Below, one piece after another: positions 4,930 to 47,331 of a DNA stretch of 64,000 nt. Below the pieces are notes generated by a model that made no database searches, had not been told where the DNA came from, and was given only the letters and a program-made list of their open reading frames with translations. The position numbers were made by a program, and so were the translations under genes. The DNA comes from Candidatus Omnitrophota bacterium. GTDB taxonomy: Bacteria; Omnitrophota; Gorgyraeia; Zapsychrales; Fredricksoniimonadaceae. Numbering within the stretch: position 1 is the first letter of the stretch; each line of letters starts with the position of its first letter. The stretch is from contig CAJARJ010000005.1 of NCBI GenBank assembly GCA_903944345.1, positions 7,890 through 71,889 of the forward strand. Reading direction: 5' to 3'.

Positions 4930-6017
4930 AAATTGTTGCTGTTAATCTCTACAATGTTTCCTGTGGCTTGCGTAAACCGTTTACGTCCCGCGGAGTGGTT
5001 ACCAGTCAGCGGCATTCCATTCTGGTTCAGTTTATAGGTGATAACGGGGAAATGGGCTTTGGTGAGGCATCACCCCTTGAGGGCTTCAGTCCAGAATCCC
5101 TGAAAAAGGCCCGCCATCAAATGAGCCTCCTAGCCAAAGAATGGAAGAATCGTAATGTCCCCTGTAAGGGCGAAGAGCTTGTTCTTTTTTTACGGTCGGC
5201 CTTTGACAGGACTGTTAACGCTTCCTCGGTCATTTTCGCCTTCGAATCTGCCGCCATAACAATGGTCGCCCGCTTCAAAAATGTTGCGCCTTGCGAAATT
5301 TTGCATGCCGGGAGCACCCGTTCCGTCCCTTCAGCCGGTCTTTTGCAAGGAAGTGTTAGTGAAGTGGTCGATGAGGCAAGACTCCTCAAGTCTCGTGGAT
5401 ATTCTGTCTTCAAACTGAAAGTCGGGTCAAGAAATATTCCTCTTGATGTCCAAAAAGTTGAAGAAACAAAGTTGGCTATCGGCCCTCAGGGACGGCTGCG
5501 ACTTGACGCGGATCGTTCCTGGCATTTTGACGAAGCTCTGCTATTTGCCCAAAACATTGGTAAGAACCAGATCGAGTTTATTGAAGATCCCTGTTTATCG
5601 CAAGATCAGTGGAACAGGTTTGTCCGTTTGTCTGATATCCCGGTTGCTGCCGATGAGTTTTTGTCCGGTACGGATAATTTGTCGCGGAAGAACATGGAAA
5701 CCATCCCGTACCTGATTATTAAACCCACTGTGTGCGGCGGAGTCATTGCTGCGTTACAGTTGATGAAAAAAGCTGCGCAGAACGGACAAAAAGTTATCAT
5801 CAGCTCTTCTTTTGAGTCGGGTGTAGGCTTAAGGATGCTGGCCAATCTGGGCTGTTTATCCGGTCAGGCGGCGGGTCTTGGCACCAGTGAATGGCTGCAA
5901 CAAGACATTCTTTCACAGCCGCTGGTTGCATCCGGGGGAATAATCACAGTCCCGGCGCTGGCTCTGAATGTTGACCTTTTTAGAACTGACATCAAGGCAT
6001 CTTTGGCTACTTTCTGA
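4917..6017 (+). CDS. menC: o-Succinylbenzoate synthase (enolase superfamily, MLE subgroup)
   Basis: KLKVG, LRLDADRSW, IEDP and IIKP catalytic motifs of OSBS/MenC; sits between menA and a menE-like gene. Confidence 0.75.
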   Translation: MDTIKIVAVNLYNVSCGLRKPFTSRGVVTSQRHSILVQFIGDNGEMGFGEASPLEGFSPESLKKARHQMSLLAKEWKNRNVPCKGEELVLFLRSAFDRTVNASSVIFAFESAAITMVARFKNVAPCEILHAGSTRSVPSAGLLQGSVSEVVDEARLLKSRGYSVFKLKVGSRNIPLDVQKVEETKLAIGPQGRLRLDADRSWHFDEALLFAQNIGKNQIEFIEDPCLSQDQWNRFVRLSDIPVAADEFLSGTDNLSRKNMETIPYLIIKPTVCGGVIAALQLMKKAAQNGQKVIISSSFESGVGLRMLANLGCLSGQAAGLGTSEWLQQDILSQPLVASGGIITVPALALNVDLFRTDIKASLATF

Positions 6018-6895
6018 TGGATTGTCCTGTTGCCTTTCATGCCCGGGAGAATCCGGATCGTATCGCCCTTTTATGGGGAAAGCGCAGCCTTTCCTGGGGG
6101 AATCTCAATGACTATGTTCATGGGACTTGCAGGGCGCTGAAAGAAATCGGCGTCAGGCCCAACAACCGCTTCGCTGTTTTGTCTACCAACACCCTTGAAA
6201 CGATTATTATACTTCTTTCTGCCTGGCGGGCAGGCGCGTCTGTTCTGGTTCTTGATCCGGCCTTATCTTTGTCTATCGGACGAAAAATTCTTGACCAGTA
6301 TAAAATTGACCTGCTTTTTTCTGATACCAAAGATTATAAGGCCTTTTCAGGACAACGCCGGACAGTCATTCTCAACAAGGTTATTTGCAAACATAACGAT
6401 TTATTCCTTTCCCATAAATTGCCCGGTATTAATCCCGATTCCAGCGGTCTGCTGCTTGTTCGTAATGCCGCCCAGGAACTGGCTGCATACAACACGGTCG
6501 ATTATGGACAACTGTTTCATTGTGCCGAAGAAGATAATCAAAAGACTGCCTATGGATCCACAAAAATCTGGTTATTACCGTTCCCTTTGCATCATATATG
6601 GGGACAACGAATTCTTTTCAGAGGGCTGGCTGGCGGGGGAGCAATTGTTTTGCCGGAATTCGAGTCGGACTTTCTTAACGATCCCGCACAATTTTCCATA
6701 ACACTCGGATTCTATAAAATTACTCATATATTCTGCCCTTTAGTGCAGTTGGGTGAACTCGTTAGGAATTCGGCTGTTTTAGCTTCTTTACGCTGTCTGG
6801 ATGCCATTCTTGTTGAACAAGGATCGCCGGATTCCACGTTATTGGATAAAGCTTCCGGCCTTTCAATACCCTTAGTGGTCAGTATTAACGGATAG
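6017..6895 (+). CDS. MenE-like AMP-binding protein, truncated and degenerate (292 aa; P-loop lost, C-terminal domain absent)
   Basis: Aligns to the MenE N-terminal domain (LSWGNLNDYVHGTCRALKEIGV..., LPFPLHHIWGQ ~ LPLFHVSGQ) but TSGSTGxPK is replaced by NPDSSGLLLV; ends ~150 aa short, with only 119 nt before the next gene. Confidence 0.5.
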   Translation: MDCPVAFHARENPDRIALLWGKRSLSWGNLNDYVHGTCRALKEIGVRPNNRFAVLSTNTLETIIILLSAWRAGASVLVLDPALSLSIGRKILDQYKIDLLFSDTKDYKAFSGQRRTVILNKVICKHNDLFLSHKLPGINPDSSGLLLVRNAAQELAAYNTVDYGQLFHCAEEDNQKTAYGSTKIWLLPFPLHHIWGQRILFRGLAGGGAIVLPEFESDFLNDPAQFSITLGFYKITHIFCPLVQLGELVRNSAVLASLRCLDAILVEQGSPDSTLLDKASGLSIPLVVSING

Positions 6896-19547: not shown

Positions 19548-22195
19548 CCGGTAACGAAATACGCGCAAGCTATCTTGATTTTTTCAGATCCAAAGGGCAC
19601 AAGATCATCTCCAGTGATTCGCTGGTTCCCAAAGATGATCCGACCGTGCTATTCACGACGGCTGGAATGCAGCAATTCAAGCCACAATTTCTGGGACATC
19701 TAACCGGTTTTTCCCGCGCGGCTTCTTCCCAGAAATGTTTGCGCACAGACGATCTTACAGAAGTCGGAGTGACAGATTTCCATCATACGATGTTTGAAAT
19801 GCTGGGCAACTTCTCTTTTGGTGATTACTTTAAACGTGAAGCAATTCATTGGGCCTGGGAATTTCTGACAATGGTTGTAAAGATTCCTGCGCAGAAATTG
19901 TGGGTTTCCGTTCATCGCGAAGATGATGAAGCTTATAACATCTGGCTCAACGACATCCGTCTTTCTCCCGAGCGGATTGTCAAACTTGGAGACAAGTCCA
20001 ATTTCTGGCCGTCCAATGCCCGGCTGAACGGACCCAATGGCCCTTGCGGCCCTTGTTCTGAAATATTTTTTGATTGGGGAAAGAACGATTGTGCCAATCC
20101 TGACTGTAATCCTGACTGTTCCTGCGGACGATTTTGTGAAGTATGGAATCTCGTTTTTACTCAGTACAACAGAAAGGATGGCGGCATTCTTGAGCCACTA
20201 CCGGCAAAAAATATTGATACGGGCATGGGCCTGGAACGTTTGACAGCCGTCCTTCAGGGCAAACACAACAATTTTGATTCGGATCTCTTTCAACCGATCA
20301 TAGCCTGCATCATGGCTGCGGAAACAGCTAATGCTTTCAAACTAACTTTAAAAGAGAGAAGAATTATAGCTGACCATATCCGCGCGGTCACATTTGGAAT
20401 CGCTGATGGCGTTATCCCTTCCAATGAAGGCCGCGGGTATGTTTTACGCCGCTTGATTGTCGATATGACCAATATTCTGATCATGTCAGGCGTCAAGAAA
20501 CCTTTTATTCATACCTTTGTTCCAGCTGTTGTCAATATTATGAAAGACGCTTACCCTGAGTTGGTTCAGAAACAGGATGAAATTACAACTCTGGTTCTGC
20601 GTGTTGAAGAAGGTGTTTTACGTCTGAATGCCGAGATGGTTCCTGCTTTTCTTGCCGAGCTGGCGGCGCTCAGGCAAATACCTGATACCATAATGTTACC
20701 CAAACTGGCCGGGGAATTAATGTTTCGGTATCGTGATACCCACGGACTTTCTTTAGAGTTTATCCGGGTTAAAGCCGAAGAAATACTGTCGCCCGAGTTG
20801 GCCAGACAGGCGGATACAATTGTTCAGTCCTTGATGGATGAGCAAAAACAGCGATCACGTACCGGAAGCAAAATGCAAGGCGATGTTTTTCTGGCGGGTA
20901 TACTGGATGTCAAGAGTTTTCCCAAAACCGATTTTGTGGGATACTCACAGCCTTCAGTTGAGGCTTCAATAATTGGAATCTTTGCCGATGGACAAACAAT
21001 TACCTCTTTGAACGACTCCCAGCAAGCGGTTGTTGTTCTGGACAAAACTCCATTCTACGCTGAACAAGGCGGACAAACAGCCGATATTGGAATTTTACAT
21101 GGGAAGTCAGGATCATTTGAAGTTACAGATACTCGTAAGCAAGGAGATGTTTTTCTTCATTACGGCGTTTGTAAAGGTAACCTGGCTGTCAACCAACCTG
21201 TCAAGGCGGCGATTGATGGTGAACGTCGCATGGCAGTTGCCAGCAACCATACCGCAACACATCTATTACAGGCTGCTCTGCGTCAGATTCTGGGAGAGCA
21301 TGTCAAACAGCAGGGATCATTAGTTGATCAAAACCGTCTGCGGTTTGATTTTACTCATCCCAAAGCCCTAAGCCGGGAAGAACTGCTGTCAGTCGAGAAT
21401 GTGGTTAATTCTTTTGTGCGACGTTGCGATAAGGTGTCCAAACAGGAAATGCTCATGCAAGAAGCCAGTTCTTCCGGAGCGTTGGCTTTCTTTGCCGAGA
21501 AATATGGTGAAACCGTCCGGGTCGTTACTGCTGGTGAATACTCCAAAGAGTTCTGCGCCGGCACTCACCTGGATTGCACAGGACAGATTGGTCTTTTCAA
21601 AGTTTTGTCTGAAAATGCGGTCGCTCAAGGTATTCGTCGTATCGAGGCTGTTACCGGAACCGGAGCGGTTGCTTTGATGAGAGAAAAAGAGGACATTCTT
21701 GAACGTTCAGCCAGTCTTCTGAAAGTGCAGGCGCATGAACTTCCGGTCAGACTGGACGCGCATTTAAAACGCATGCGTGAACTGCAAAAGACTGTGGCTG
21801 ATCAAAATTTTCTGCTTATCAAAGAAAACCTCGATTCAGTGATTAACAAGGTTGTTGTTGCAGGAGAAGCAGCTTTTGTTTCCTGCATTTTCAAAAATAC
21901 AGATATGGAAACCCTGCGCAGGCTTTCCGATCTTGTTCGCCAGCGTTGTACCTCTTTTGTAGCTTTATTGGGATCGACAACAGATGAAGACGGGGCCTTG
22001 ATTATTTCCTGTTCAGATGATCTGGTCAAAAAGGGCTGTCATGCCGGAACCTTGATCAAGAGAATCACCGGCGTTTTCGGAGGCTCAGGCGGCGGACGTC
22101 CCAATATGGCTCAAGCCGGCTGCAAGGACCCGCAACGTCTGGCTGAAACATTTGAGCAAATGAAAAAGATCGTCAAGGAGAGCTCCGGACTATGA
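19544..22195 (+). CDS. alaS: Alanine--tRNA ligase
   Basis: 883 aa; class II core, editing domain HTATHLL, C-terminal DHHA1; start overlaps the recX stop. Confidence 0.95.
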   Translation: MTGNEIRASYLDFFRSKGHKIISSDSLVPKDDPTVLFTTAGMQQFKPQFLGHLTGFSRAASSQKCLRTDDLTEVGVTDFHHTMFEMLGNFSFGDYFKREAIHWAWEFLTMVVKIPAQKLWVSVHREDDEAYNIWLNDIRLSPERIVKLGDKSNFWPSNARLNGPNGPCGPCSEIFFDWGKNDCANPDCNPDCSCGRFCEVWNLVFTQYNRKDGGILEPLPAKNIDTGMGLERLTAVLQGKHNNFDSDLFQPIIACIMAAETANAFKLTLKERRIIADHIRAVTFGIADGVIPSNEGRGYVLRRLIVDMTNILIMSGVKKPFIHTFVPAVVNIMKDAYPELVQKQDEITTLVLRVEEGVLRLNAEMVPAFLAELAALRQIPDTIMLPKLAGELMFRYRDTHGLSLEFIRVKAEEILSPELARQADTIVQSLMDEQKQRSRTGSKMQGDVFLAGILDVKSFPKTDFVGYSQPSVEASIIGIFADGQTITSLNDSQQAVVVLDKTPFYAEQGGQTADIGILHGKSGSFEVTDTRKQGDVFLHYGVCKGNLAVNQPVKAAIDGERRMAVASNHTATHLLQAALRQILGEHVKQQGSLVDQNRLRFDFTHPKALSREELLSVENVVNSFVRRCDKVSKQEMLMQEASSSGALAFFAEKYGETVRVVTAGEYSKEFCAGTHLDCTGQIGLFKVLSENAVAQGIRRIEAVTGTGAVALMREKEDILERSASLLKVQAHELPVRLDAHLKRMRELQKTVADQNFLLIKENLDSVINKVVVAGEAAFVSCIFKNTDMETLRRLSDLVRQRCTSFVALLGSTTDEDGALIISCSDDLVKKGCHAGTLIKRITGVFGGSGGGRPNMAQAGCKDPQRLAETFEQMKKIVKESSGL

Positions 22196-23415
22196 AACTT
22201 CTACAATTACAGGCTAATACTATCCAGGAACTTTATAATCGCAATTTTTTCTATCGCCGCCAAAGCACAGTCTCAAAAGTTTCCCGTATTGTTGATGATA
22301 TCCGTTTGCACGGGGATACTGCGGTCCTGAAATATACCCGTCGTTTTGACCGCATCAAGATGACCGCAAAAGATTTAAGAGTTTCGGAAAGTGAAATCAG
22401 CAGTTCGTTTCAGGATATTTCATCGGACTTCATATCGACACTTAAATTTGCCATTAACAATGTTACGACTTTCTATAAGAAACAGATCAAGAAACCCGTC
22501 TGCATCAAAAGCGCTGACGGGATCGTGCTTAAAGAAGAATATTATCCTGTCGATTCTGTGGGCGTTTACATCCCTGCAGGAACAGCCCCTTTGGTATCGT
22601 CTGTCTATATGACAGTCATCCCTGCCCGTATTGCAGGTGTTCGACGGGTGGTTATTGCAACTCCACCAGGAAAAGATGGCCGGGTCAATCCGCACATCCT
22701 GGCTGTTGCCAATCTGCTAAATGTCAACGAAGTCTATAAGGTGGGCGGTGCCCAGGCCGTTGCCGCTCTGGCTTTTGGAACCAAAACTATTCCCCGTGTA
22801 GACAAGATAGTCGGGCCAGGGAACTCTTATGTGACTGAGGCCAAGCGCCAGTTGTTTGGATATGTTGATATCGATATGCTGGCAGGCCCCACCGAGCTTG
22901 TGGTCATTGCCAACCGTTACAGCAATCCTGAATACGTCATTGCTGATCTTGAATCGCAACTCGAACACTCTGGTGGTCTGTCCATCCTTATTTCCACTTC
23001 GAAAGGGCTGATACGACAGGTAAAAAACCGGGTTCAGGGAGGGTATGTCATATACGCGAAAAACATGGAAGAAGCTTGCGATATTGCCAACAAGATTGCC
23101 CCGGAACATCTACAAATTATGACCAATGATCCGCGGAGCGTGGCACGCATGATACGTAATGCGGGCGCAATCTTTCTGGGACCATTTAGTCCTACTCCGT
23201 TAGGAGATTATATTGCCGGCCCAAGCCACGTATTGCCAACTCTGGGGACAGCCAAGTTCTCTTCAGGATTATCATTGTCTGATTTCATGAAAACCAGTCA
23301 TATTATTTCCTATTCACGAAAAGCACTTGAAAAGGTTCGTGAACCTCTGGAAAAAGTGGCCTTGATTGAAGGTCTTGTCAAACATGCTGAATCAGTTAAT
23401 ATAAGGTTCAGATAA
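22192..23415 (+). CDS. hisD: Histidinol dehydrogenase
   Basis: ATG overlaps the alaS stop (ATGA); HisD N-terminal and NAD/Zn-binding regions. Confidence 0.9.
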   Translation: MKLLQLQANTIQELYNRNFFYRRQSTVSKVSRIVDDIRLHGDTAVLKYTRRFDRIKMTAKDLRVSESEISSSFQDISSDFISTLKFAINNVTTFYKKQIKKPVCIKSADGIVLKEEYYPVDSVGVYIPAGTAPLVSSVYMTVIPARIAGVRRVVIATPPGKDGRVNPHILAVANLLNVNEVYKVGGAQAVAALAFGTKTIPRVDKIVGPGNSYVTEAKRQLFGYVDIDMLAGPTELVVIANRYSNPEYVIADLESQLEHSGGLSILISTSKGLIRQVKNRVQGGYVIYAKNMEEACDIANKIAPEHLQIMTNDPRSVARMIRNAGAIFLGPFSPTPLGDYIAGPSHVLPTLGTAKFSSGLSLSDFMKTSHIISYSRKALEKVREPLEKVALIEGLVKHAESVNIRFR

Positions 23416-23487: not shown

Positions 23488-24105
23488 ATGATACCAAGAC
23501 AAGCGACAATCGAAAGAAAAAGTAAAGAAACGCATATTAAGGCTTCATTGAACATTGACGGGCGCGGAGATCGTTGTGATATCCGTACCGGTATCGCCTT
23601 CCTTGATCATATGATTGAATTGTTCGCTTTCCATGGTCTTTTTGATCTCAAGCTGGAAGTCATTAAATCAGATACCGCAATTGATATCCATCATACAAAC
23701 GAAGATATCGGAATCGTTCTGGGCAAAGTTTTTAAACAGGCTTTAGCGGATAAAGCTGGGATCCGCCGCTTTGGCTGCGCAGGCGCACCCATGGAAGCAA
23801 CCGTCGCGCGTTGTGTTCTTGATATCAGTGGCCGCGGGTATTTCAAATTCAATATCGAGAACGATAAACTTGTAAATAATGGAGAAAAACAGGAATATTC
23901 CCTGAATTATCTGGAGCACTTCATGGAATCTTTCGCACACAATCTTGGCGCCACGCTGTGTATAACGTTACAAAATGGCTCTGATGATGTGCATACAAAT
24001 GTTGAGGCCGTTTTTAAGGCCCTGGGGCTGGCGCTTGATCAAGCCACGCAGGTAGATCCCAGAAGGGAAGGCATTGTGCCTTCAACAAAAGGAATTATTG
24101 ACTGA
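23488..24105 (+). CDS. hisB: Imidazoleglycerol-phosphate dehydratase
   Basis: RKSKETHIKASLNIDG ... IAFLDHMIE IGPD motifs; AAAGGAG RBS. Confidence 0.9.
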   Translation: MIPRQATIERKSKETHIKASLNIDGRGDRCDIRTGIAFLDHMIELFAFHGLFDLKLEVIKSDTAIDIHHTNEDIGIVLGKVFKQALADKAGIRRFGCAGAPMEATVARCVLDISGRGYFKFNIENDKLVNNGEKQEYSLNYLEHFMESFAHNLGATLCITLQNGSDDVHTNVEAVFKALGLALDQATQVDPRREGIVPSTKGIID

Positions 24106-24148
24106 ATCAGGCGACACTTCCTGCCGGGTTTAATCGGAGAGATTGCCA

Positions 24149-24754
24149 ATGATAGCTATCATTGATTATGGAATGGGGAATTTGCGCAGTGTTCAGAAAG
24201 CGCTTGAAGCTGCAGGCGCAAGTACCAAGATCGTTTCATCTGCCAAGGAACTGGATTCTGCCGACAAAGTTGTTTTGCCTGGTGTGGGAGCCATGAAACC
24301 GGCCATGGACAGGCTTGAGGAGCTGGGCCTAATTGAGCCTATACGGTTTTATGTAAGTTCTGGAAAACCTTTTCTCGGTATTTGTCTTGGGTTCCAATTG
24401 TTATTCGATCGCAGTTCTGAGGGCGGAGATGTTCAGGGACTGGGTATTATCTCCGGTGATGTTCGCCGTTTTCCAAATACTGTCAAGGTTCCCCAGATCG
24501 GTTGGAATAATCTCCTTTTGCCCAACGATGCTTCCTGTATGTTCCAGAAAATGCGAAATGACCTATTTGTGTACTTTTGTCATTCTTATTACGTTGTTCC
24601 TGAAGACGAAACTTTAGTGTCCGCATGGGCTCAATATGGCTTGCGCTATACCGCAGCTATCCAGCATAAAAACCTGTGGGGAGTGCAGTTCCATCCAGAG
24701 AAAAGCCAGGGGGCAGGGGCACTGCTTCTAAAAAATTTCGTTGAGACAATATGA
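24149..24754 (+). CDS. hisH: Imidazole glycerol phosphate synthase, glutamine amidotransferase subunit
   Basis: MIAIIDYGMGNLRSV; catalytic GICLG; C-terminal VQFHPEKS. Confidence 0.9.
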   Translation: MIAIIDYGMGNLRSVQKALEAAGASTKIVSSAKELDSADKVVLPGVGAMKPAMDRLEELGLIEPIRFYVSSGKPFLGICLGFQLLFDRSSEGGDVQGLGIISGDVRRFPNTVKVPQIGWNNLLLPNDASCMFQKMRNDLFVYFCHSYYVVPEDETLVSAWAQYGLRYTAAIQHKNLWGVQFHPEKSQGAGALLLKNFVETI

Positions 24755-25473
24755 TTATCCTTCCGGCTATTGATATTAAACAGGGTCGCGTCATTCGTCT
24801 TTTCAAAGGACAATTTGACAAGGTTACCGATTATGGTGCTGATCCTTTGTCTATGGCCAAACACTGGGAAGATATGGGCGCACCTTATTTGCATGTTGTC
24901 GATCTGGACGGAGCAGAATCAGGAAACCGGATCAACCAATCCATCATTTGCCGCATAGCCCAAGACCTCAAAATTCCTGTCGAAACCGGCGGAGGCATTC
25001 GTTCGCACGAAACGATCAGGGAATATATGCAGGCAGGTATTTCCCGGGTTATTCTGGGAACCAGAGTCGTCAGCGACCGGGACTTTCTTAAACGCGCACT
25101 GGCTGATTGGGGCGAACGTATTGCGGTCAGTATTGACTGTTCCAACGGTTTTGTCGCACAACGAGGATGGCAGGAAACCTCCTCGGTTAAAGGCATTGAT
25201 CTGGCTCGCGAATTTTCCGCCATGGGACTTCAGTACATTATTTACACGGATATAGCCAGAGACGGCACTCTTGAAGGGCCAAACATTACAGGGCTGCTCG
25301 AAATTCTTGATAATGTTTCTGTCAACGTTATTGCTTCGGGGGGAATTAAAGATGAGTCCGACATCAAAACTCTGTCCGCCCTCAAACGTTCCAATTTGTA
25401 CGGAGTCATAACCGGCAAAGCCATTTACGAAGGCAAGCTTGATCTTAAACACGCTTTAGGGCTTTGCCAATGA
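24751..25473 (+). CDS. hisA: ProFAR isomerase
   Basis: MIILPAIDIKQGRVIRL...; overlaps the hisH stop. Confidence 0.9.
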   Translation: MIILPAIDIKQGRVIRLFKGQFDKVTDYGADPLSMAKHWEDMGAPYLHVVDLDGAESGNRINQSIICRIAQDLKIPVETGGGIRSHETIREYMQAGISRVILGTRVVSDRDFLKRALADWGERIAVSIDCSNGFVAQRGWQETSSVKGIDLAREFSAMGLQYIIYTDIARDGTLEGPNITGLLEILDNVSVNVIASGGIKDESDIKTLSALKRSNLYGVITGKAIYEGKLDLKHALGLCQ

Positions 25474-27401
25474 GCCAACCCGGTTTGCGGACGACTTTTG
25501 TTGAGTATTGTCGTCGTGTTTTCTTTCTGTGTTCGAACCCGTTTTTTCCTTTCGTATTAGGCTTGATTTCTTTCTGCCTTATTATCGGACTGTTCTTCCC
25601 TCTTTTGAATGCAGAATATTTGTTCCATTATGATGATGGAACGAATTTCTTGCATAATTCCTGGGTAATAAACACTGAATTAACACAAATATGGAAGATC
25701 TTCTTTGCTGCAAATACAGCAAATCAAACCTATGTTCCCTTAAGCGTGCTGACTTTCTTTCTGGAGAACTATTTATGGGGACTACACGCACCTGTATCTC
25801 ATCTGATTAATCTTTTCTTACATCTCGCTGTTGTTGTTTTCTTGTACCAGTTTGCCAGATTGATAGGATCAACGAGGATCACCGCATTTACCGCTGCGTT
25901 AATATTTGCTCTACACCCATTACATGTGGAGCCAGTCGTCTGGGTATCTGCCCGCAAGGATCTTTTGTTCTCTCTTTTTTATCTCTTGTCCCTGATAGAA
26001 TATTGTCGGTACATTAAAGAACGTAAAGCCCAGGATTATTGCTTGTCTTTATTGGCCGGTTTACTGAGCATTCTCTCTAAACCTATGGCTATCTCATTGC
26101 CATTGGCACTTTTTCTGGTTGATTATTTAATGCAAAGACGGTTTGGAAAAAGATCCCTGTTTGATAAACTGCCTTTTATTTTCACCATTCTGCCCATTGG
26201 ATGGATAACCTACGCGATGAACGCCCGGTCATCCTTTTTTATCTGGCCAGATTCTTTACTTTTCTGGTCTGATTGCGGCTGGTTTTACATATCAAAATTT
26301 TTCTGGCCTGCTGCGTTAACCCCCTTAACTTTACCCGATTTATCTGCTAATTGGCTTTCAGACAGATTTATTTTTTCATTTCTTCCGTTAACTGCTTCTT
26401 TACTTGTGGCTCTTTTTGTAAAAAGCAGGTTAATGTTCTTTTCTTTAATGTTTTATGTGTGTGGCACCTTCTTTCTCTGGCGCTTTGATCTGGGTGTCGA
26501 TCTGAATTATGTTGCCGGAAGATTTATGTATCTGCCCAGCATCGGGTTTTGCCTACTGGTCGGCTTCTGTTTCGAGCAACTCCTTCGGCGTTTCAAGCCG
26601 GGATACTTTGCATGGGTTCTTCTTTCTGTTTTGATCATTTCTTTTCTTGTTTTGTCAGCCCGACAAGTTAGAATATGGCATAATTCGTGCGTTTTCTGGA
26701 AAGAGATCACTGCCCGCAATCCCGAATTTCCAGAAGGTTGGCGCTGGTTAGCTGCCGCCTATAACAATGGGGGAGAAGGTTGCTCCAGGCAAATTGCGCG
26801 GATGATTGCTGAAGATAAAAAAATATCCTGGATTAAATTTAGAAAAAAATATTCCGATTCTTATTATCTTAAAATTGATATCGTTCGACGAATACTGTCT
26901 TTACGCTATAGTCGAAAAGCATTGGAACTTAATCCTGAAGGCACCCAGGAATTGAATTATATCGGACGGGCTTTATTATTTCTTGGAAGCCCGCTAAAAG
27001 CACTTTACAACTTTGACCGGGCCATAGACCTGGATCCAAAGGAACCTTTACATTATTTGTTCCGAGCCAGGACTCATGCGGCATTAGCTCGATATGAAAA
27101 GGCAGTAACTGATTATGCTCAAACAATCGCTTTAGGTCATATTTCCGCTGAAACTTTCAGCGAGCGCGCAGATCTTTTGATACTGGCCAATCGGCCAAAG
27201 GAAGCTCTGGAAGACCTTAAGCGGGTTCTTGTTCATAGACCATTGAACAGGGACATTTATTCAAGATCATTTCTGGCTGCTATAAGAAGTTCGCAGCTGG
27301 AATTTGCCAATGATATTCTTACTCTGGAAAACAAGCTGTTTCCAAACGATATTTTATTGGACCAACACAAGCGATTACTTGAGCAGGCCCAAAGTCGTTG
27401 A
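25470..27401 (+). CDS. TMTC/PMT-like polytopic membrane protein with C-terminal TPR repeats (putative protein O-glycosyl/mannosyltransferase family)
   Basis: ATG overlaps the hisA stop; ~11 TM N-domain with LHPLHVEPVVWVSARKDLLFS motif; C-terminal TPR repeats; visibly AT-richer than flanking his genes. Confidence 0.65.
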   Translation: MSQPGLRTTFVEYCRRVFFLCSNPFFPFVLGLISFCLIIGLFFPLLNAEYLFHYDDGTNFLHNSWVINTELTQIWKIFFAANTANQTYVPLSVLTFFLENYLWGLHAPVSHLINLFLHLAVVVFLYQFARLIGSTRITAFTAALIFALHPLHVEPVVWVSARKDLLFSLFYLLSLIEYCRYIKERKAQDYCLSLLAGLLSILSKPMAISLPLALFLVDYLMQRRFGKRSLFDKLPFIFTILPIGWITYAMNARSSFFIWPDSLLFWSDCGWFYISKFFWPAALTPLTLPDLSANWLSDRFIFSFLPLTASLLVALFVKSRLMFFSLMFYVCGTFFLWRFDLGVDLNYVAGRFMYLPSIGFCLLVGFCFEQLLRRFKPGYFAWVLLSVLIISFLVLSARQVRIWHNSCVFWKEITARNPEFPEGWRWLAAAYNNGGEGCSRQIARMIAEDKKISWIKFRKKYSDSYYLKIDIVRRILSLRYSRKALELNPEGTQELNYIGRALLFLGSPLKALYNFDRAIDLDPKEPLHYLFRARTHAALARYEKAVTDYAQTIALGHISAETFSERADLLILANRPKEALEDLKRVLVHRPLNRDIYSRSFLAAIRSSQLEFANDILTLENKLFPNDILLDQHKRLLEQAQSR

Positions 27402-27458
27402 CAAATTTCTTTCGATGAACTTTATTTTACACTTTTGTTTAAACAATAACGGAGTATT

Positions 27459-28214
27459 ATGCTGACGAAACGCATTATTCCCTGCCTGGATGTTAAAGAC
27501 GGGCGAGTGGTTAAAGGCATTAATTTTGTCCAGTTACGTGATGCCGGAGACCCGGTCGAAATAGCCCGGGCTTATGATCTGGCCCGAGCGGACGAACTGG
27601 TTTTTCTGGATATTACAGCCAGCCATGAAGGCAGAAAGATATTTCTCGATGTGGTCAAGCGCACAGCCGAACAGATTTTTATGCCTTTGACGGTTGGTGG
27701 AGGGATTAACTCGGTCGAGGATATCCGGAGCTTACTTAATGCAGGGGCAGATAAAATTTCACTCAATACAGCTGCGGTGGCCAATCCGGCACTGATCAAG
27801 GAAGCTTCGGACAAATTTGGCTCGCAGTGTATTGTTGTGGCCATTGATGTCCGAAAAATTAACGGCGACTGGATCGTTTTCACGCATGGAGGCCGTCAAC
27901 AAACCAACCTCCAGGCTGTGCCCTGGGCGAAAGAAGTCGAAAGGCTTGGGGCTGGTGAAATCCTTTTGACCAGCATGGATACTGACGGGACAAAAGACGG
28001 GTTTGATATCCCGCTGACACGTGCTGTCAGTGCGTCGGTAGGGATTCCTGTCATAGCCTCGGGAGGGGCAGGTGCGCTTGCTCATTTCTATGATGTTTTC
28101 AGCCAGACGGGGGCGCAAGCCGCACTGGCCGCTTCCATTTTTCACTTTGGAGAAATTGCCATACCACAGGTTAAAGGTTATTTAATGGAACGTTCCGTTT
28201 GTGTTCGTGTCTAA
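27459..28214 (+). CDS. hisF: Imidazole glycerol phosphate synthase, cyclase subunit
   Basis: [20 protein letters not shown]; GGAG RBS. Confidence 0.9.
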
Positions 28215-28266: not shown

Positions 28267-30105
28267 ATGCGGCGCCAGTCGAAACGTCCTGGTTTTTACT
28301 GGGTCTATATCGTTCGCTGCCGATTGGGGACTTATTATGTTGGTTGCACTAATGATCTTGAAAAACGGATTAAACGGCATAATACGGGTCAAGGTGCAAA
28401 ATATTTAAGAGGCCGAGGCCCGGTTGAGCTTGTCTACAGAACAAAATGCCCAACCTTTGCTGCAGCCCTTCGTCTGGAATGGAAAATCAAACAGCTCTCA
28501 CATTCAGATAAAGAAAGATTGTTGTCGCAATATTCTGCTCAAGCAGCTTTAACTGCCAGACAAGATCCAAAATCGACGAATGCTGATAAAAGGAAAAATA
28601 TGAATGAAATTAACGAAAAAGAATTTCTCAGGCTTGCTTCCAAAGGTGGGCTTATTCCGGTATTTCGGGAGATCCCGGGCGACCTTGAGACGCCAGTTTC
28701 AGCCTATTTTAAAATCAGCAAGGCCAACAAATATTCGTTTCTGCTTGAATCTGTTGAAGGCGGAGAGAAACTGGCACGTTATTCTTTTCTGGCAGCAGCG
28801 CCAGAATGTGTTCTGGAGTCTAAAGGACGTGTGGCTAAAATTATTCGTTTTACAAAAAAAGGCCCTGTAGCCCATGCGGCTCCTTTTCGTGATTCACCAT
28901 TGGAAATCGTTCGGGAGTTGATTAGTAAGTATAATTATGTTAATATCTCAGGTCTTCCGGGTTTTAGTGGAGGATTTGTAGGCTATCTTGGCTATGATAT
29001 GGTTCGGTTCTTTGAGAATTTGCCAGAAAAAACTGAAGATGATCTTGGTTTACCTGATATGGTTCTGATGCTTGCCAAGGATTTACTGATCTTTGATCAT
29101 TTGCATCATACGATCAAAGTCATTAGCTGTACGGAGATAGACAGCCATGATGACCGATTAACAAAAATCCGTAAATTCAGGCAGGCCCATAAAAGAATCG
29201 CTAAAATGGTTGGTTTATTGTCTGCACCTTTACCAAAATTGAAACGTGCCAGACAAAAATCGTCCTCCGCAGAAGCCAAAGCTACTGCCGATTTGTCAAA
29301 AACGAAGTACGAGTCTATGGTCAGCCGGGCAAAAGAAGAAATTCGCTCGGGTGAAATTATACAAGTTGTTCTCTCTCAGCGTTTTAAGGTTGATTGTCCG
29401 ATTGATTCCATAGAACTTTATAGAACCCTTCGTAATCTTAATCCGTCACCGTATATGTATTTATTAAACCTTGACGGTCTCAATATTGTCGGTTCTTCTC
29501 CGGAATTACTTATGCGTTGCGAGAATGGCATTGTCGAAACTCGACCGATCGCAGGAACCAGACCTCGAGGGCATTCTCTGGAGGATGATCTAAGGCTCGA
29601 ACAAGAGCTTCTGAATGATCCTAAAGAACGGGCAGAACATGTCATGCTCGTTGATCTGGGACGCAATGATCTCGGGCGAGTCTGCCGGGAAGGCAGCGTC
29701 AGGGTCACTGATCTCATGTCTGTTGAACGTTTTTCACACGTTATGCATATTGTCTCCAACGTCCGTGGAGAATTGGCTGAAGGACAAGATGCCTTAAGCG
29801 CGCTTCAATCTGTTTTTCCGGCCGGGACTTTATCCGGAGCACCCAAAGTCCGCGCCATGCAGATTATCGAGGAATTGGAAACAAAACGCCGTGGCCCCTA
29901 TGGGGGGTGTGTTGGATATTTCAGCTTCTCCGGAAATATCGATACCTGTATAACGATTCGTACGATTGTTTTAAGCAAGGGGTCTGCTTATATTCAGGCT
30001 GGCGCGGGAATCGTGGCAGATTCAGATCCTTTTACCGAATACAACGAAACACTAAACAAGGCTAAAGCGCAAATAAAAGCGCTGCAATTGGCGCAACGGC
30101 GCTGA
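28267..30105 (+). CDS. trpE: In-frame fusion: N-terminal GIY-YIG (YhbQ/UPF0213-like) domain + anthranilate synthase component I (TrpE); internal ATG with own RBS at 28600
   Basis: Residues 8-90 YWVYIVRC..GTYYVGCTNDLEKRIKRHNTGQGAKYLRGRGPVELVY match YhbQ; from MNEINEKEFL: LLESVEGGEKLARYSF, PIAGTRPRG, GAGIVADSDP TrpE motifs; no stop between the domains. Confidence 0.75.
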   Translation: MRRQSKRPGFYWVYIVRCRLGTYYVGCTNDLEKRIKRHNTGQGAKYLRGRGPVELVYRTKCPTFAAALRLEWKIKQLSHSDKERLLSQYSAQAALTARQDPKSTNADKRKNMNEINEKEFLRLASKGGLIPVFREIPGDLETPVSAYFKISKANKYSFLLESVEGGEKLARYSFLAAAPECVLESKGRVAKIIRFTKKGPVAHAAPFRDSPLEIVRELISKYNYVNISGLPGFSGGFVGYLGYDMVRFFENLPEKTEDDLGLPDMVLMLAKDLLIFDHLHHTIKVISCTEIDSHDDRLTKIRKFRQAHKRIAKMVGLLSAPLPKLKRARQKSSSAEAKATADLSKTKYESMVSRAKEEIRSGEIIQVVLSQRFKVDCPIDSIELYRTLRNLNPSPYMYLLNLDGLNIVGSSPELLMRCENGIVETRPIAGTRPRGHSLEDDLRLEQELLNDPKERAEHVMLVDLGRNDLGRVCREGSVRVTDLMSVERFSHVMHIVSNVRGELAEGQDALSALQSVFPAGTLSGAPKVRAMQIIEELETKRRGPYGGCVGYFSFSGNIDTCITIRTIVLSKGSAYIQAGAGIVADSDPFTEYNETLNKAKAQIKALQLAQRR

Positions 30106-47258: not shown

Positions 47259-47331
47259 GCCGAGGTAGCTCAGTTGGTAGAGCAAGCGGTTCATACCCGC
47301 TATGTCGTGGGTTCGACTCCCCCCCTCGGTA
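47259..47331 (+). tRNA. tRNA with CAU anticodon (elongator Met-type or tRNA-Ile2 lysidine substrate); no encoded CCA
   Basis: Cloverleaf read by hand: acceptor GCCGAGG/CCTCGGT (G1-U72 wobble), D-arm GCTC-AGTTGGTA-GAGC, anticodon arm AGCGG-TTCATAC-CCGCT, T-arm GTGGG-TTCGACT-CCCCC (one mismatch), discriminator A; followed by T7. Confidence 0.8.

Follow-up and report, generated by a model that had tools for sequence, protein, structure and literature searches.

The his genes of an Omnitrophota genome are interrupted by a gene, hereafter X, and we consider it on balance probable that X is a native Omnitrophota gene for a GT-C/TPR protein, which was relocated locally and is now carried as a passenger in the his array; this is the best explanation of our findings. 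X is an ORF of 643 aa that lies between hisA and hisF in the window, by which we mean the whole 64,000-nucleotide stretch of DNA analyzed here. The ORF coordinates and the Pfam identification of the neighboring his genes bear out the order hisD-hisB-hisH-hisA-X-hisF that was reported in a first-pass annotation of this DNA (Table 1). The ATGA overlap with hisA described there is likewise present in the sequence, as the ATG of X (25470) overlaps the TGA of hisA (25471-25473) in caATGAgcc. The hisD start and the alaS stop likewise share 4 bp, and an overlap of exactly 4 bp was counted at 10/57 gene junctions in the window, so that the ATGA overlap is nothing special here. Downstream of X, the spacer contains the hisF ribosome-binding site, GGAG, 7 nt 5' of the hisF ATG. 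Since no terminator-like hairpin and no strong promoter were found in this 57-bp gap, hisF must be transcribed through X, and we infer that X is co-transcribed with hisA and hisF. The proposal that X is under his-operon control is doubtful, as the his genes belong to an extended co-directional recX-alaS-his-trpE array and neither a his leader nor a T-box was detected at Rfam gathering scores; we also found no his-specific regulator. A protein identical to X (P0121) is encoded on 7 public contigs. No paralog of X was found elsewhere in the window.

Table 1. Coordinates of X, its predicted domains and motifs, and the adjoining his genes in the window
Feature	Position	Strand	Description	Evidence
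hisD	22192..23415	+	histidinol dehydrogenase	Pfam PF00815, E 1e-144
hisB	23488..24105	+	imidazoleglycerol-phosphate dehydratase	Pfam PF00475, E 4e-47
hisH	24143..24754	+	glutamine amidotransferase subunit	Pfam PF00117, E 1e-23
hisA	24751..25473	+		Pfam PF00977, E 9e-76
X	25470..27401	+	predicted GT-C-fold membrane glycosyltransferase with C-terminal TPR domain	
11-TM GT-C domain	25470..26684	+	aa 1-405, predicted	AlphaFold2 model of aa 1-441, pLDDT 90
D55-D56	25632..25637	+	loop 1 acidic motif, putative catalytic site	conserved in 58/59 and 56/59
LHPLHVEPVVWVSARKDLLFS block	25911..25973	+	aa 148-168, end of TM3 and loop 2	
K204	26079..26081	+	loop 3 lysine, putative donor phosphate or sugar contact	conserved in 59/59
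Y273-x6-P280...P285...P289	26286..26336	+	proline-rich, loop 4 (TM7-TM8)	
(TG)4 tract	26456..26463	+	dinucleotide tract in X	
R351-F-M-Y354	26520..26531	+	loop 5 (TM9-TM10)	family consensus DRFMY
TPR domain	26685..27398	+	aa 406-643, predicted periplasmic	Pfam, PDB matches, AlphaFold2
X-hisF spacer	27402..27458	+	57 bp	kept in L001 and L004
hisF	27459..28214	+	cyclase subunit of IGP synthase	Pfam PF00977, E 3e-87

The top homologs of X all belong to Omnitrophota. The X clade was recovered in 100/100 bootstraps, and it was sister to P0004, P0005, P0006, P0007, P0008, P0011, and P0014 in 80/100. In this sister group, the cluster around P0004 and P0008 reads pseudopilin-rsmE-[membrane proteins]-recA-recX-alaS-hisD; P0006 and P0007 have the same upstream cluster. 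The sister-group genes are found just upstream of recA, ~6 kb further up the same recA-recX-alaS-his neighborhood, and 2-4 genes downstream of pseudopilin genes, with rsmE in between; their loci also hold several large membrane proteins, an acyltransferase_3, and a PMT_2 protein. Synteny read from gene tables revealed that hisA directly adjoins hisF in the P0004 genome. The same adjacency was seen in nearly all of 80 metagenomic his loci, including the closest alaS-hisDBHAF-trpE loci, and none of the 80 contained an X homolog. Conversely, no his genes were located within 6 kb of X homologs at the best 80 GTDB loci. Three lineages share the hisA-X-hisF arrangement with identical sequences at both junctions, and the hisA-X junction GCCAATGA is kept in the orthologous loci L001 and L004. 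The view that X was inserted rather than ancestral is thus upheld by its absence from the next relatives, with the qualification that the event is old and lineage-specific, being common to all three lineages.

We propose that X moved ~6 kb in the ancestor of a single narrow clade. Its ancestral site would have been in a secretin-T2SS-pseudopilin-rsmE-membrane-protein cluster upstream of recA, and its new one between hisA and hisF, where purifying selection would since have maintained it as an "alien" passenger. Its expression would presumably occur by read-through and translational coupling in the recX-alaS-his-trpE array, and X would have no role in histidine synthesis.

The first-pass annotation had also described X as markedly AT-rich and, for that reason, possibly foreign. 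The AT-richness of X is real, yet modest, with a GC of 0.411 vs 0.459 for the window mean and 0.44-0.50 for the flanks. When amino-acid composition and window codon usage were taken into account, the expected GC was 0.449, leaving a residual of -0.038, the lowest among 42 genes (z = -2.5) but close to those of amtB (-0.035) and trpE (-0.029). For the GC3 residual, X ranked only 3rd of 42, with amtB ahead of it and trpE at the same level. Synonymous codon choice makes up most of the GC drop of X in the window, with GC3 in the native range; in two X orthologs, GC3 (0.418 and 0.420) equals that of the flanks and the drop sits at codon position 1, where it reflects amino-acid composition. Much of the low GC of X is due to its amino-acid composition and to codon usage of the kind expected when expression is low. 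Horizontal gain from a donor that lies outside the lineage and is richer in AT, followed by insertion into the his operon, would agree with the low GC and the lowest GC residual, with X evolving faster than any other gene of the block (aa identity of 76% vs 88-98% for its neighbors), and with the insertion being missing from the next relatives. We nevertheless judge such an origin improbable, since the close homologs are all Omnitrophota, the sister group occupies the same chromosomal neighborhood, the GC3 residual is only the 3rd of 42, the orthologs have flank-like GC3 with a drop in GC1, and the dS of X matches that of its neighbors. The conserved X junctions carry no repeats, no integrase or tRNA, and no other marks of mobile elements. 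Nor does X have the features of an island, as its GC3 is in range, its sister group is native and syntenic, and its junctions are clean and conserved. Together, these findings argue against the foreign origin that had been suggested for X.

X was described as having an ~11-TM domain followed by C-terminal TPR repeats, and both parts were corroborated. AlphaFold2 helices, hydropathy, and the positive-inside rule agree on 11 TM with a cytoplasmic N terminus, with K+R making up 21% of the cytoplasmic loops vs 5% of the periplasmic loops, and the full-length AlphaFold2 model has a pLDDT of 92. In the tail, AlphaFold2 places helical hairpins at aa 406-642, and Pfam TPR_1, TPR_2, and TPR_17 match at aa 495-546, with TPR matches spanning aa ~495-590 overall; these Pfam matches are weak. 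The tail also matches consensus-TPR proteins in PDB by phmmer. A Foldseek search with the full-length model returned mostly TPR proteins, with 1 GT-C in the top 50, and the TM domain was modeled separately (aa 1-441) to remove these TPR matches. The top 31 matches of the TM-domain model were all GT-C enzymes or a related GPI-transamidase subunit. They included STT3 (8age_A; E 2e-5, TMq 0.51), ArnT (5f15), PglB, AglB, Pmt4 (9i5k), ALG3, Emb, ALG6, and DPY19, although the TM-scores of X against solved GT-Cs were only ~0.5. The fold of the TM-domain model supports the prediction that X is a GT-C-fold membrane glycosyltransferase.

Profile and sequence searches recovered the TPR tail and left the TM domain unmatched. 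In Pfam and NCBIfam, X and its N-terminal 460 aa gave TPR matches only and no glycosyltransferase model, and aa 1-460 had no PMT_2, PMT (PF02366), or DUF1736 (PF08409) match in Pfam even at E<=10. The HMM search that the first-pass annotation suggested as a check of the TMTC-like domain was therefore negative for X itself. A phmmer search of X against PDB sequences returned TPR proteins only, as did a profile HMM built from 16 TM domains, which still included the first TPR and found no solved GT-C among PDB sequences. When 62 aligned members of the family were scanned with Pfam, TPR-type families took all of the top 25 places. The PMT_2 (PF13231) threshold was passed by only four relatives (P0014, P0057, P0074, and P0100) at 27-30 bits, with a cut-off of 26.1, and the match covers the region equivalent to TM2-TM6. 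Since it was found in these relatives and X itself lacks it, the link between X and PMT_2 is only transitive.

Residue conservation was counted over 59 family members. The acidic pair D55-D56 directly follows TM1 in loop 1, which is predicted to be periplasmic. Conservation within the family is highest in the LHPLHVEPVVWVSARKDLLFS block, which contains H149, P150, E154, W158, R162, K163, and D164; H149 and W158 are invariant, P150, E154, R162, and K163 are at least 90% conserved, and R162-K163-D164 fits an RxD motif. In loop 4, Y273 and P280 are found in 58/59 and 59/59 members, respectively. X keeps 35/44 conserved positions, including DD, H149, E154, RKD, K204, and R351/Y354, and the conserved DD, RKD, K204, and RxxY fall in predicted periplasmic loops 1, 2, 3, and 5. 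Two positions that are near-invariant in the family are altered: D350 is G in X and G/A/A across the X clade, and Y287 is T in X and T/I/M across the X clade.

The eukaryotic protein O-mannosyltransferases TMTC1-4 belong to CAZy family GT105, and X resembles them in having 11 TM and then a TPR domain on the non-cytoplasmic side, as well as in a GT-C fold for which ArnT and STT3 are the nearest solved structures. Prokaryotic full-length TMTC-like homologs have been reported from BLAST with human TMTC3 (PMC7801869). Our comparison of X with the TMTC motifs (PMC7801869) was based on their positions and loops rather than on a sequence alignment with TMTC. M1 (DD, EL1) is present as D55, D56 and M3 (RxD, EL2) as R162-K-D164. 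M2 (SHKSYRP, EL1) is partial, with NQTYVPL in X vs SHKSYRPL in TMTC and an [ST]Y-x-PL block in both, and M7 (ERxxY, EL5) is partial as G350-R351-F-M-Y354, with the acidic residue lost. For M4 (KE[TQ]xxT, EL3), X has only the K, in K204-P-M, at the position of ArnT K203. In place of the M5 DW motif, which TMTCs carry in the DUF1736 loop between TM7 and TM8, loop 4 of X has Y273-x6-P280, and DUF1736 (PF08409) is absent from X and from the precomputed Pfam domains of 120 relatives. The proteins would also differ in their donor, which would be a bacterial polyprenyl-phosphate sugar for X and is dolichyl-P-mannose for TMTC. In all, X has exact or partial counterparts of five of the seven TMTC motifs, in the equivalent loops.

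TfpW of Pseudomonas aeruginosa, a GT-C and TPR protein, glycosylates pilin with D-arabinofuranose (bioRxiv 10.1101/2020.04.19.049825). It is 646 aa long vs 643 aa for X, and both have a cytoplasmic N terminus, 11 predicted TM, and a periplasmic TPR domain. When compared by published description, the DDx motif in loop 1 of TfpW corresponds to D55-D56-G in X, and YX6PFX7P in loop 4 corresponds to Y273-ISKFFW-P280-A-ALTPLTL-P289; the best structural template of TfpW is ArnT (bioRxiv 10.1101/2020.04.19.049825). Unlike tfpW, which is immediately downstream of pilA, X has no N_methyl or pilin gene near it in the window, and the window contains no D-Araf biosynthesis genes. X shares the GT-C fold and the acidic loop-1 motif with ArnT (GT83) and with PMT/PMT_2 (GT39). 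However, ArnT has 13 TM rather than 11, and the TPR domain of X is absent from ArnT and the PMTs. PMT possesses a MIR domain, whereas X has no Pfam match to it and its AlphaFold2 model has no beta-trefoil insert.

We propose that X would act at the periplasmic face, where it would draw its sugar from a polyprenyl-phosphate-linked donor, a donor type suggested by the fold and by the conserved K204 and R351/Y354. The putative pocket would be formed by D55/D56 in loop 1, H149/E154/R162/K163/D164 in loop 2, K204 in loop 3, and R351/Y354 in loop 5. From X, the sugar would pass to an acceptor in the envelope, which is most likely a protein that the TPR domain recruits. Our best guess is pilins or pseudopilins, because the sister-group genes adjoin T2SS/T4P-like pseudopilin genes, a link by neighborhood that is confined to the sister lineages. 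Alternatively, X may be a GT-C enzyme with a lipid or polysaccharide acceptor, which could modify lipid A as ArnT does or polymerize glycan in the manner of Emb, while its TPR domain could scaffold a complex for export or assembly. The fold matches include ArnT and Emb/AftA, the YX6P proline motif has been tied to glycan chain-length control in EmbC/TfpW (bioRxiv 10.1101/2020.04.19.049825), and the large membrane proteins, acyltransferase_3, and PMT_2 protein of the sister loci would suit such a system. On the other hand, the characterized enzymes that combine GT-C and TPR, TMTC and TfpW, modify proteins (PMC7801869; bioRxiv 10.1101/2020.04.19.049825), and the best fold matches of X are protein oligosaccharyltransferases. 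Neither point is decisive, and we regard this alternative as unlikely.

The dN/dS of X is 0.12-0.14, far below 1 in both domains, and its dS of 0.88-1.95 is like that of its neighbors (saturated). X evolves 2-10 times faster than its neighbors, with a dN/dS 2-10 times theirs. In one public 318-kb contig, from the same or a nearly identical genome, 2 extra bases at the (TG)4 tract split X into ORFs of 345 and 291 aa. We considered phase variation at this tract and rejected it, since the tract is not conserved in the orthologs of L001 and L004 and the +2 variant occurs on a single contig. This frameshifted allele, the loss of Y287 and D350 across the whole X clade, the elevated dN/dS relative to the neighbors, and the weak TPR matches could indicate that X is a decaying or non-catalytic remnant, which lost its original role once relocated and persists only because its disruption would be polar on hisF. 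This, too, appears quite unlikely to us: the low dN/dS extends over both domains, three lineages and 7 contigs carry an intact ORF, most of the conserved positions (35/44) are kept, and the AlphaFold2 model is confident.

The favored reading, in which X is a relocated native passenger, has precedents in other his operons, where the "alien" gene is a general concept (PMC10138114). In Corynebacterium glutamicum, alien genes are found in hisHA-impA-hisFI and hisDCB-cg2302-cg2301, cg2301 being an MFS permease gene, and deletion of the alien gene between hisA and hisF leaves histidine prototrophy intact (PMC3896937). Like X, these genes are unrelated to the pathway and lie inside the his array, and one encodes a membrane protein. 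They belong to other gene families and another phylum, and X differs in its 4-bp hisA overlap and its length of 1.9 kb. It is conceivable that the position of X is functional, with its expression or activity tied to histidine biosynthesis or amino-acid status. The arrangement and junctions have been kept in three lineages at saturated dS, the start of X is coupled to hisA, and hisF transcription must run through X, all of which would be expected if this were so. We find it very improbable, as his genes were within 6 kb at 0/80 of the best GTDB homolog loci and an X homolog was at 0/80 his loci, no his leader or T-box is present, recX, alaS, and trpE share the array and 4-bp overlaps are common in it, and alien genes in other his operons have no effect on the pathway (PMC3896937). 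The location of X, though unusual, is probably neutral.

With little likelihood in our estimation, the Omnitrophota GT-C/TPR paralogs that cluster next to T2SS/T4P-like pseudopilin genes may be bacterial counterparts of TMTC and TfpW and O-glycosylate pilins or other envelope proteins, with the copy of the X clade rewired into the alaS-his array by selection. If this is true, glycosylation of envelope proteins would share its expression and translational coupling with the making of amino acids, and the relocation of X, with Y287 and D350 altered, would represent neofunctionalization rather than a neutral move.

X is an ordinary member of a huge bacterial family of predicted inner-membrane glycosyltransferases, which comprises 55,097 cluster representatives at E<=1e-3 (25,522 at E<=1e-10). 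A family-pattern scan of GTDB species genomes gave at least 590 loci from many phyla; the window's own species is not among the GTDB matches listed, and the best identity to X among them is 37%. Since X appears to be a native gene that moved a few kb in a narrow lineage, we see it as a modest curiosity and not as a foreign gene or a new system, and the case does not overturn current understanding. It adds to the known alien genes that are stably carried in his operons, and it offers a worked example in which an AT-rich-looking membrane gene in a biosynthetic operon would be a native gene moved locally. The family with the TMTC/TfpW architecture is very large, with tens of thousands of 50%-identity clusters, and experimentally untouched. 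Its Omnitrophota members tend to adjoin T2SS/T4P pseudopilin genes, which provides a testable lead on their acceptors.

The gene designated X, which lies between hisA and hisF, is a real open reading frame whose start codon overlaps the hisA stop in an ATGA (caATGAgcc), as the first-pass annotation had noted. The gene order hisD-hisB-hisH-hisA-X-hisF is likewise correct, because Pfam identifies hisD, hisB, hisH, and hisA upstream and hisF downstream (E-values 1e-23 to 1e-144). The array extends beyond the his operon, with 4-bp overlaps also at recX/alaS, alaS/hisD, and hisH/hisA, and a GIY-YIG::trpE fusion 52 bp downstream of hisF. Almost all genes of the 64-kb window are on the + strand, and 18 of its 57 junctions overlap, exactly 4 bp being the extent at 10 of the 57, which makes the ATGA coupling typical of this region.

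Two other open reading frames deserve mention. The 612-aa fusion combines, in one frame, a GIY-YIG nuclease domain with an entire anthranilate synthase component I (TrpE); it also occurs in comparison loci L001-L003 and partly in L004, while the more distant his-trpE loci retrieved lack the GIY-YIG part, and the fusion is found only in the clade that has X inserted. An AMP-binding (MenE-like) frame adjoining UbiA/MenA-like and MenC-like genes may be truncated or mis-framed.

Features of the window, of protein X (residue numbering), and of three comparison loci
Feature	Position	Strand	Description
X	25470-27401	+	643 aa
(TG)4 tract	26456-26463		inside X
GIY-YIG::trpE fusion	28267-30105	+	GIY-YIG domain at aa 11-80 (PF01541, E 3.5e-18)
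AMP-binding ORF	6017-6895	+	292 aa; matches only the first ~100 of 384 Pfam model positions
tRNA	47259-47331		sole Rfam match over 1-64000
X, loop 1	D55, D56, N63, P90		family-conserved
X, end of TM3 and loop 2	H149, P150, E154, W158, R162, K163, D164		motif at aa 148-168, family-conserved
X, loop 3	K204		family-conserved
X, loop 4	Y273-x6-P280		family-conserved
X, loop 5	R351, Y354		family-conserved
Pseudopilin cluster, L166	1-19845		
Pseudopilin cluster, L167	1-12120		
Pseudopilin cluster, L005	1-17848		

Among the HMMs that the first-pass annotation had named, those for TPR repeats matched X (aa ~495-590) and were the only Pfam or NCBIfam hits; the first 460 residues drew no match at a cut-off as loose as E ≤ 10. 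PMT_2 and DUF1736 did not match X itself; four relatives passed the PMT_2 threshold (27-30 bits), and neither DUF1736 nor the DW motif was found in X or the relatives checked. A TM-domain profile compared by sequence with solved structures also found no GT-C enzyme, and HMM-based membership of X is weak. AlphaFold2, given an alignment of 62 homologues, returned confident models, with a pLDDT of 92.4 for the full-length protein and 90.2 for residues 1-441. When the TM domain was searched with Foldseek, all significant matches were GT-C glycosyltransferases, namely STT3 (8age_A, E 2e-5, TMq 0.51), ArnT (5f15), PglB, AglB, Pmt4, ALG3, EmbA/B, ALG6, and DPY19. Helices, hydropathy, and the K+R content of the loops (21% cytoplasmic, 5% periplasmic) predict an N-in, 11-TM protein with a periplasmic TPR domain, in keeping with the ~11-TM domain and C-terminal TPR first proposed.

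The family-conserved residues of X fall within periplasmic loops, and they include the motif picked out from the sequence at first reading. TMTC proteins carry motifs M1 (DD), M3 (RxD), M4 (K...), M5, and M7 (ERxxY) in the same loops (PMC7801869), and the architecture also matches that of the Pseudomonas aeruginosa pilin glycosyltransferase TfpW, which has 646 aa, 11 TM helices, a periplasmic TPR, and DDx and YX6PFX7P motifs (bioRxiv 10.1101/2020.04.19.049825). At two positions near-invariant elsewhere, the X clade (the narrow Omnitrophota group with X inside the his genes) is substituted: Y287 to T/I/M and D350 to G/A/A. Together, predicted fold, topology, and motifs support the GT-C/TMTC-like reading, though Pfam HMMs do not. 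In their TMTC motif analysis, Eisenhaber et al. also noted that full-length TM+TPR homologues exist in many uncharacterised prokaryotes (PMC7801869). Searched by itself, the TM domain of X gives 55,097 cluster representatives with E ≤ 1e-3, of which 25,522 reach E ≤ 1e-10; at least 590 family loci turned up in GTDB, spread over Omnitrophota, Bacteroidota, Planctomycetota, Verrucomicrobiota, and further phyla. The family is therefore ordinary and widespread, and X belongs to a known, very large, uncharacterised bacterial family.

What sets X apart is its location. In nearly all of 80 metagenomic his loci, including the closest alaS-hisDBHAF-trpE ones, hisA and hisF are adjacent, and none of the 80 holds an X homologue; among the top 80 homologue loci from GTDB, not one lies within 6 kb of his genes. 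The arrangement is shared by two further lineages, whose X homologues P0001 and P0003 are 76% and 68% identical to X, whose his proteins are 88-98% identical to those of the window, and whose loci repeat the GCCAATGA junction and, ahead of hisF, the ~55-bp spacer containing the GGAG site. X was thus already in place before the three lineages split. It evolves faster than every other gene of the block (76% amino-acid identity in L001 and 65-68% in L004, versus 88-98% for most flanking proteins), has a dS (0.88-1.95) comparable to its neighbours and a dN/dS of 0.12-0.14 versus 0.006-0.10 for the his genes, and is under purifying selection. Inserts between hisA and hisF also occur in the metagenomic his loci of a few unrelated lineages (L148, 1480 bp; L155, 901 bp; L161, 590 bp; L140, 358 bp).

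Marked AT-richness relative to the flanking his genes had suggested a foreign origin. X is indeed AT-rich (GC 0.411 versus 0.459 for the window, and 0.449 predicted from its protein sequence if codons are used as in the other 41 genes), and its residual of -0.038 is the window's lowest (z = -2.5). However, amtB (-0.035) and trpE (-0.029) come near, its GC3 residual ranks third of 42 genes, and at two orthologous loci X (GC3 0.418 and 0.420) does not differ in GC3 from the his genes beside it, so the AT-richness is mild and in the native range. The GC deficit of these orthologues lies at codon position 1 (0.45-0.50 versus 0.53-0.62) and is an effect of amino-acid composition.

Phylogeny does not support a foreign origin either. 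In an NJ tree, the X clade (100/100) is sister (80/100) to P0004/5/6/7/8/11/14, in whose genomes the gene sits in a conserved cluster with a secretin, T2SS E and F, pseudopilins, rsmE, and 2-4 large membrane proteins including tandem paralogues. In two sister genomes, this cluster continues directly into recA-recX-alaS-hisD, and hisA and hisF overlap one another in the genome that carries P0004. The window clade instead has amtB-glnB in front of recA. The simplest reading is a native gene that underwent short-range relocation, not foreign acquisition. As read in L166, L167, L005, and the P0004 gene table, the cluster comprises a secretin, a T2SS ATPase and platform protein, 2-5 pseudopilins, rsmE, and several 450-660-aa membrane proteins lacking a Pfam match, including tandem X paralogues.

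The intact X protein occurs on 7 contigs, while in one public 318-kb contig, from this genome or one almost identical to it, 2 additional bases at the (TG)4 tract split X into 345-aa and 291-aa frames (P0002, P0123). Since the tract is not conserved in orthologues, we rejected phase variation.

The sister-lineage neighbourhood and the TfpW analogy suggest that the acceptor may be a pilin. We infer that X is co-transcribed with hisA and hisF. Rfam gave no his leader, no T-box, and no further element besides the tRNA, and the X-hisF gap holds no terminator. In Corynebacterium glutamicum, his operons carry alien genes, among them one for an MFS permease and, lying between hisA and hisF, impA; their deletion leaves histidine prototrophy unaffected (PMC3896937; PMC10138114). 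On these grounds, we take X to be a passenger whose position, though unusual, is probably neutral.
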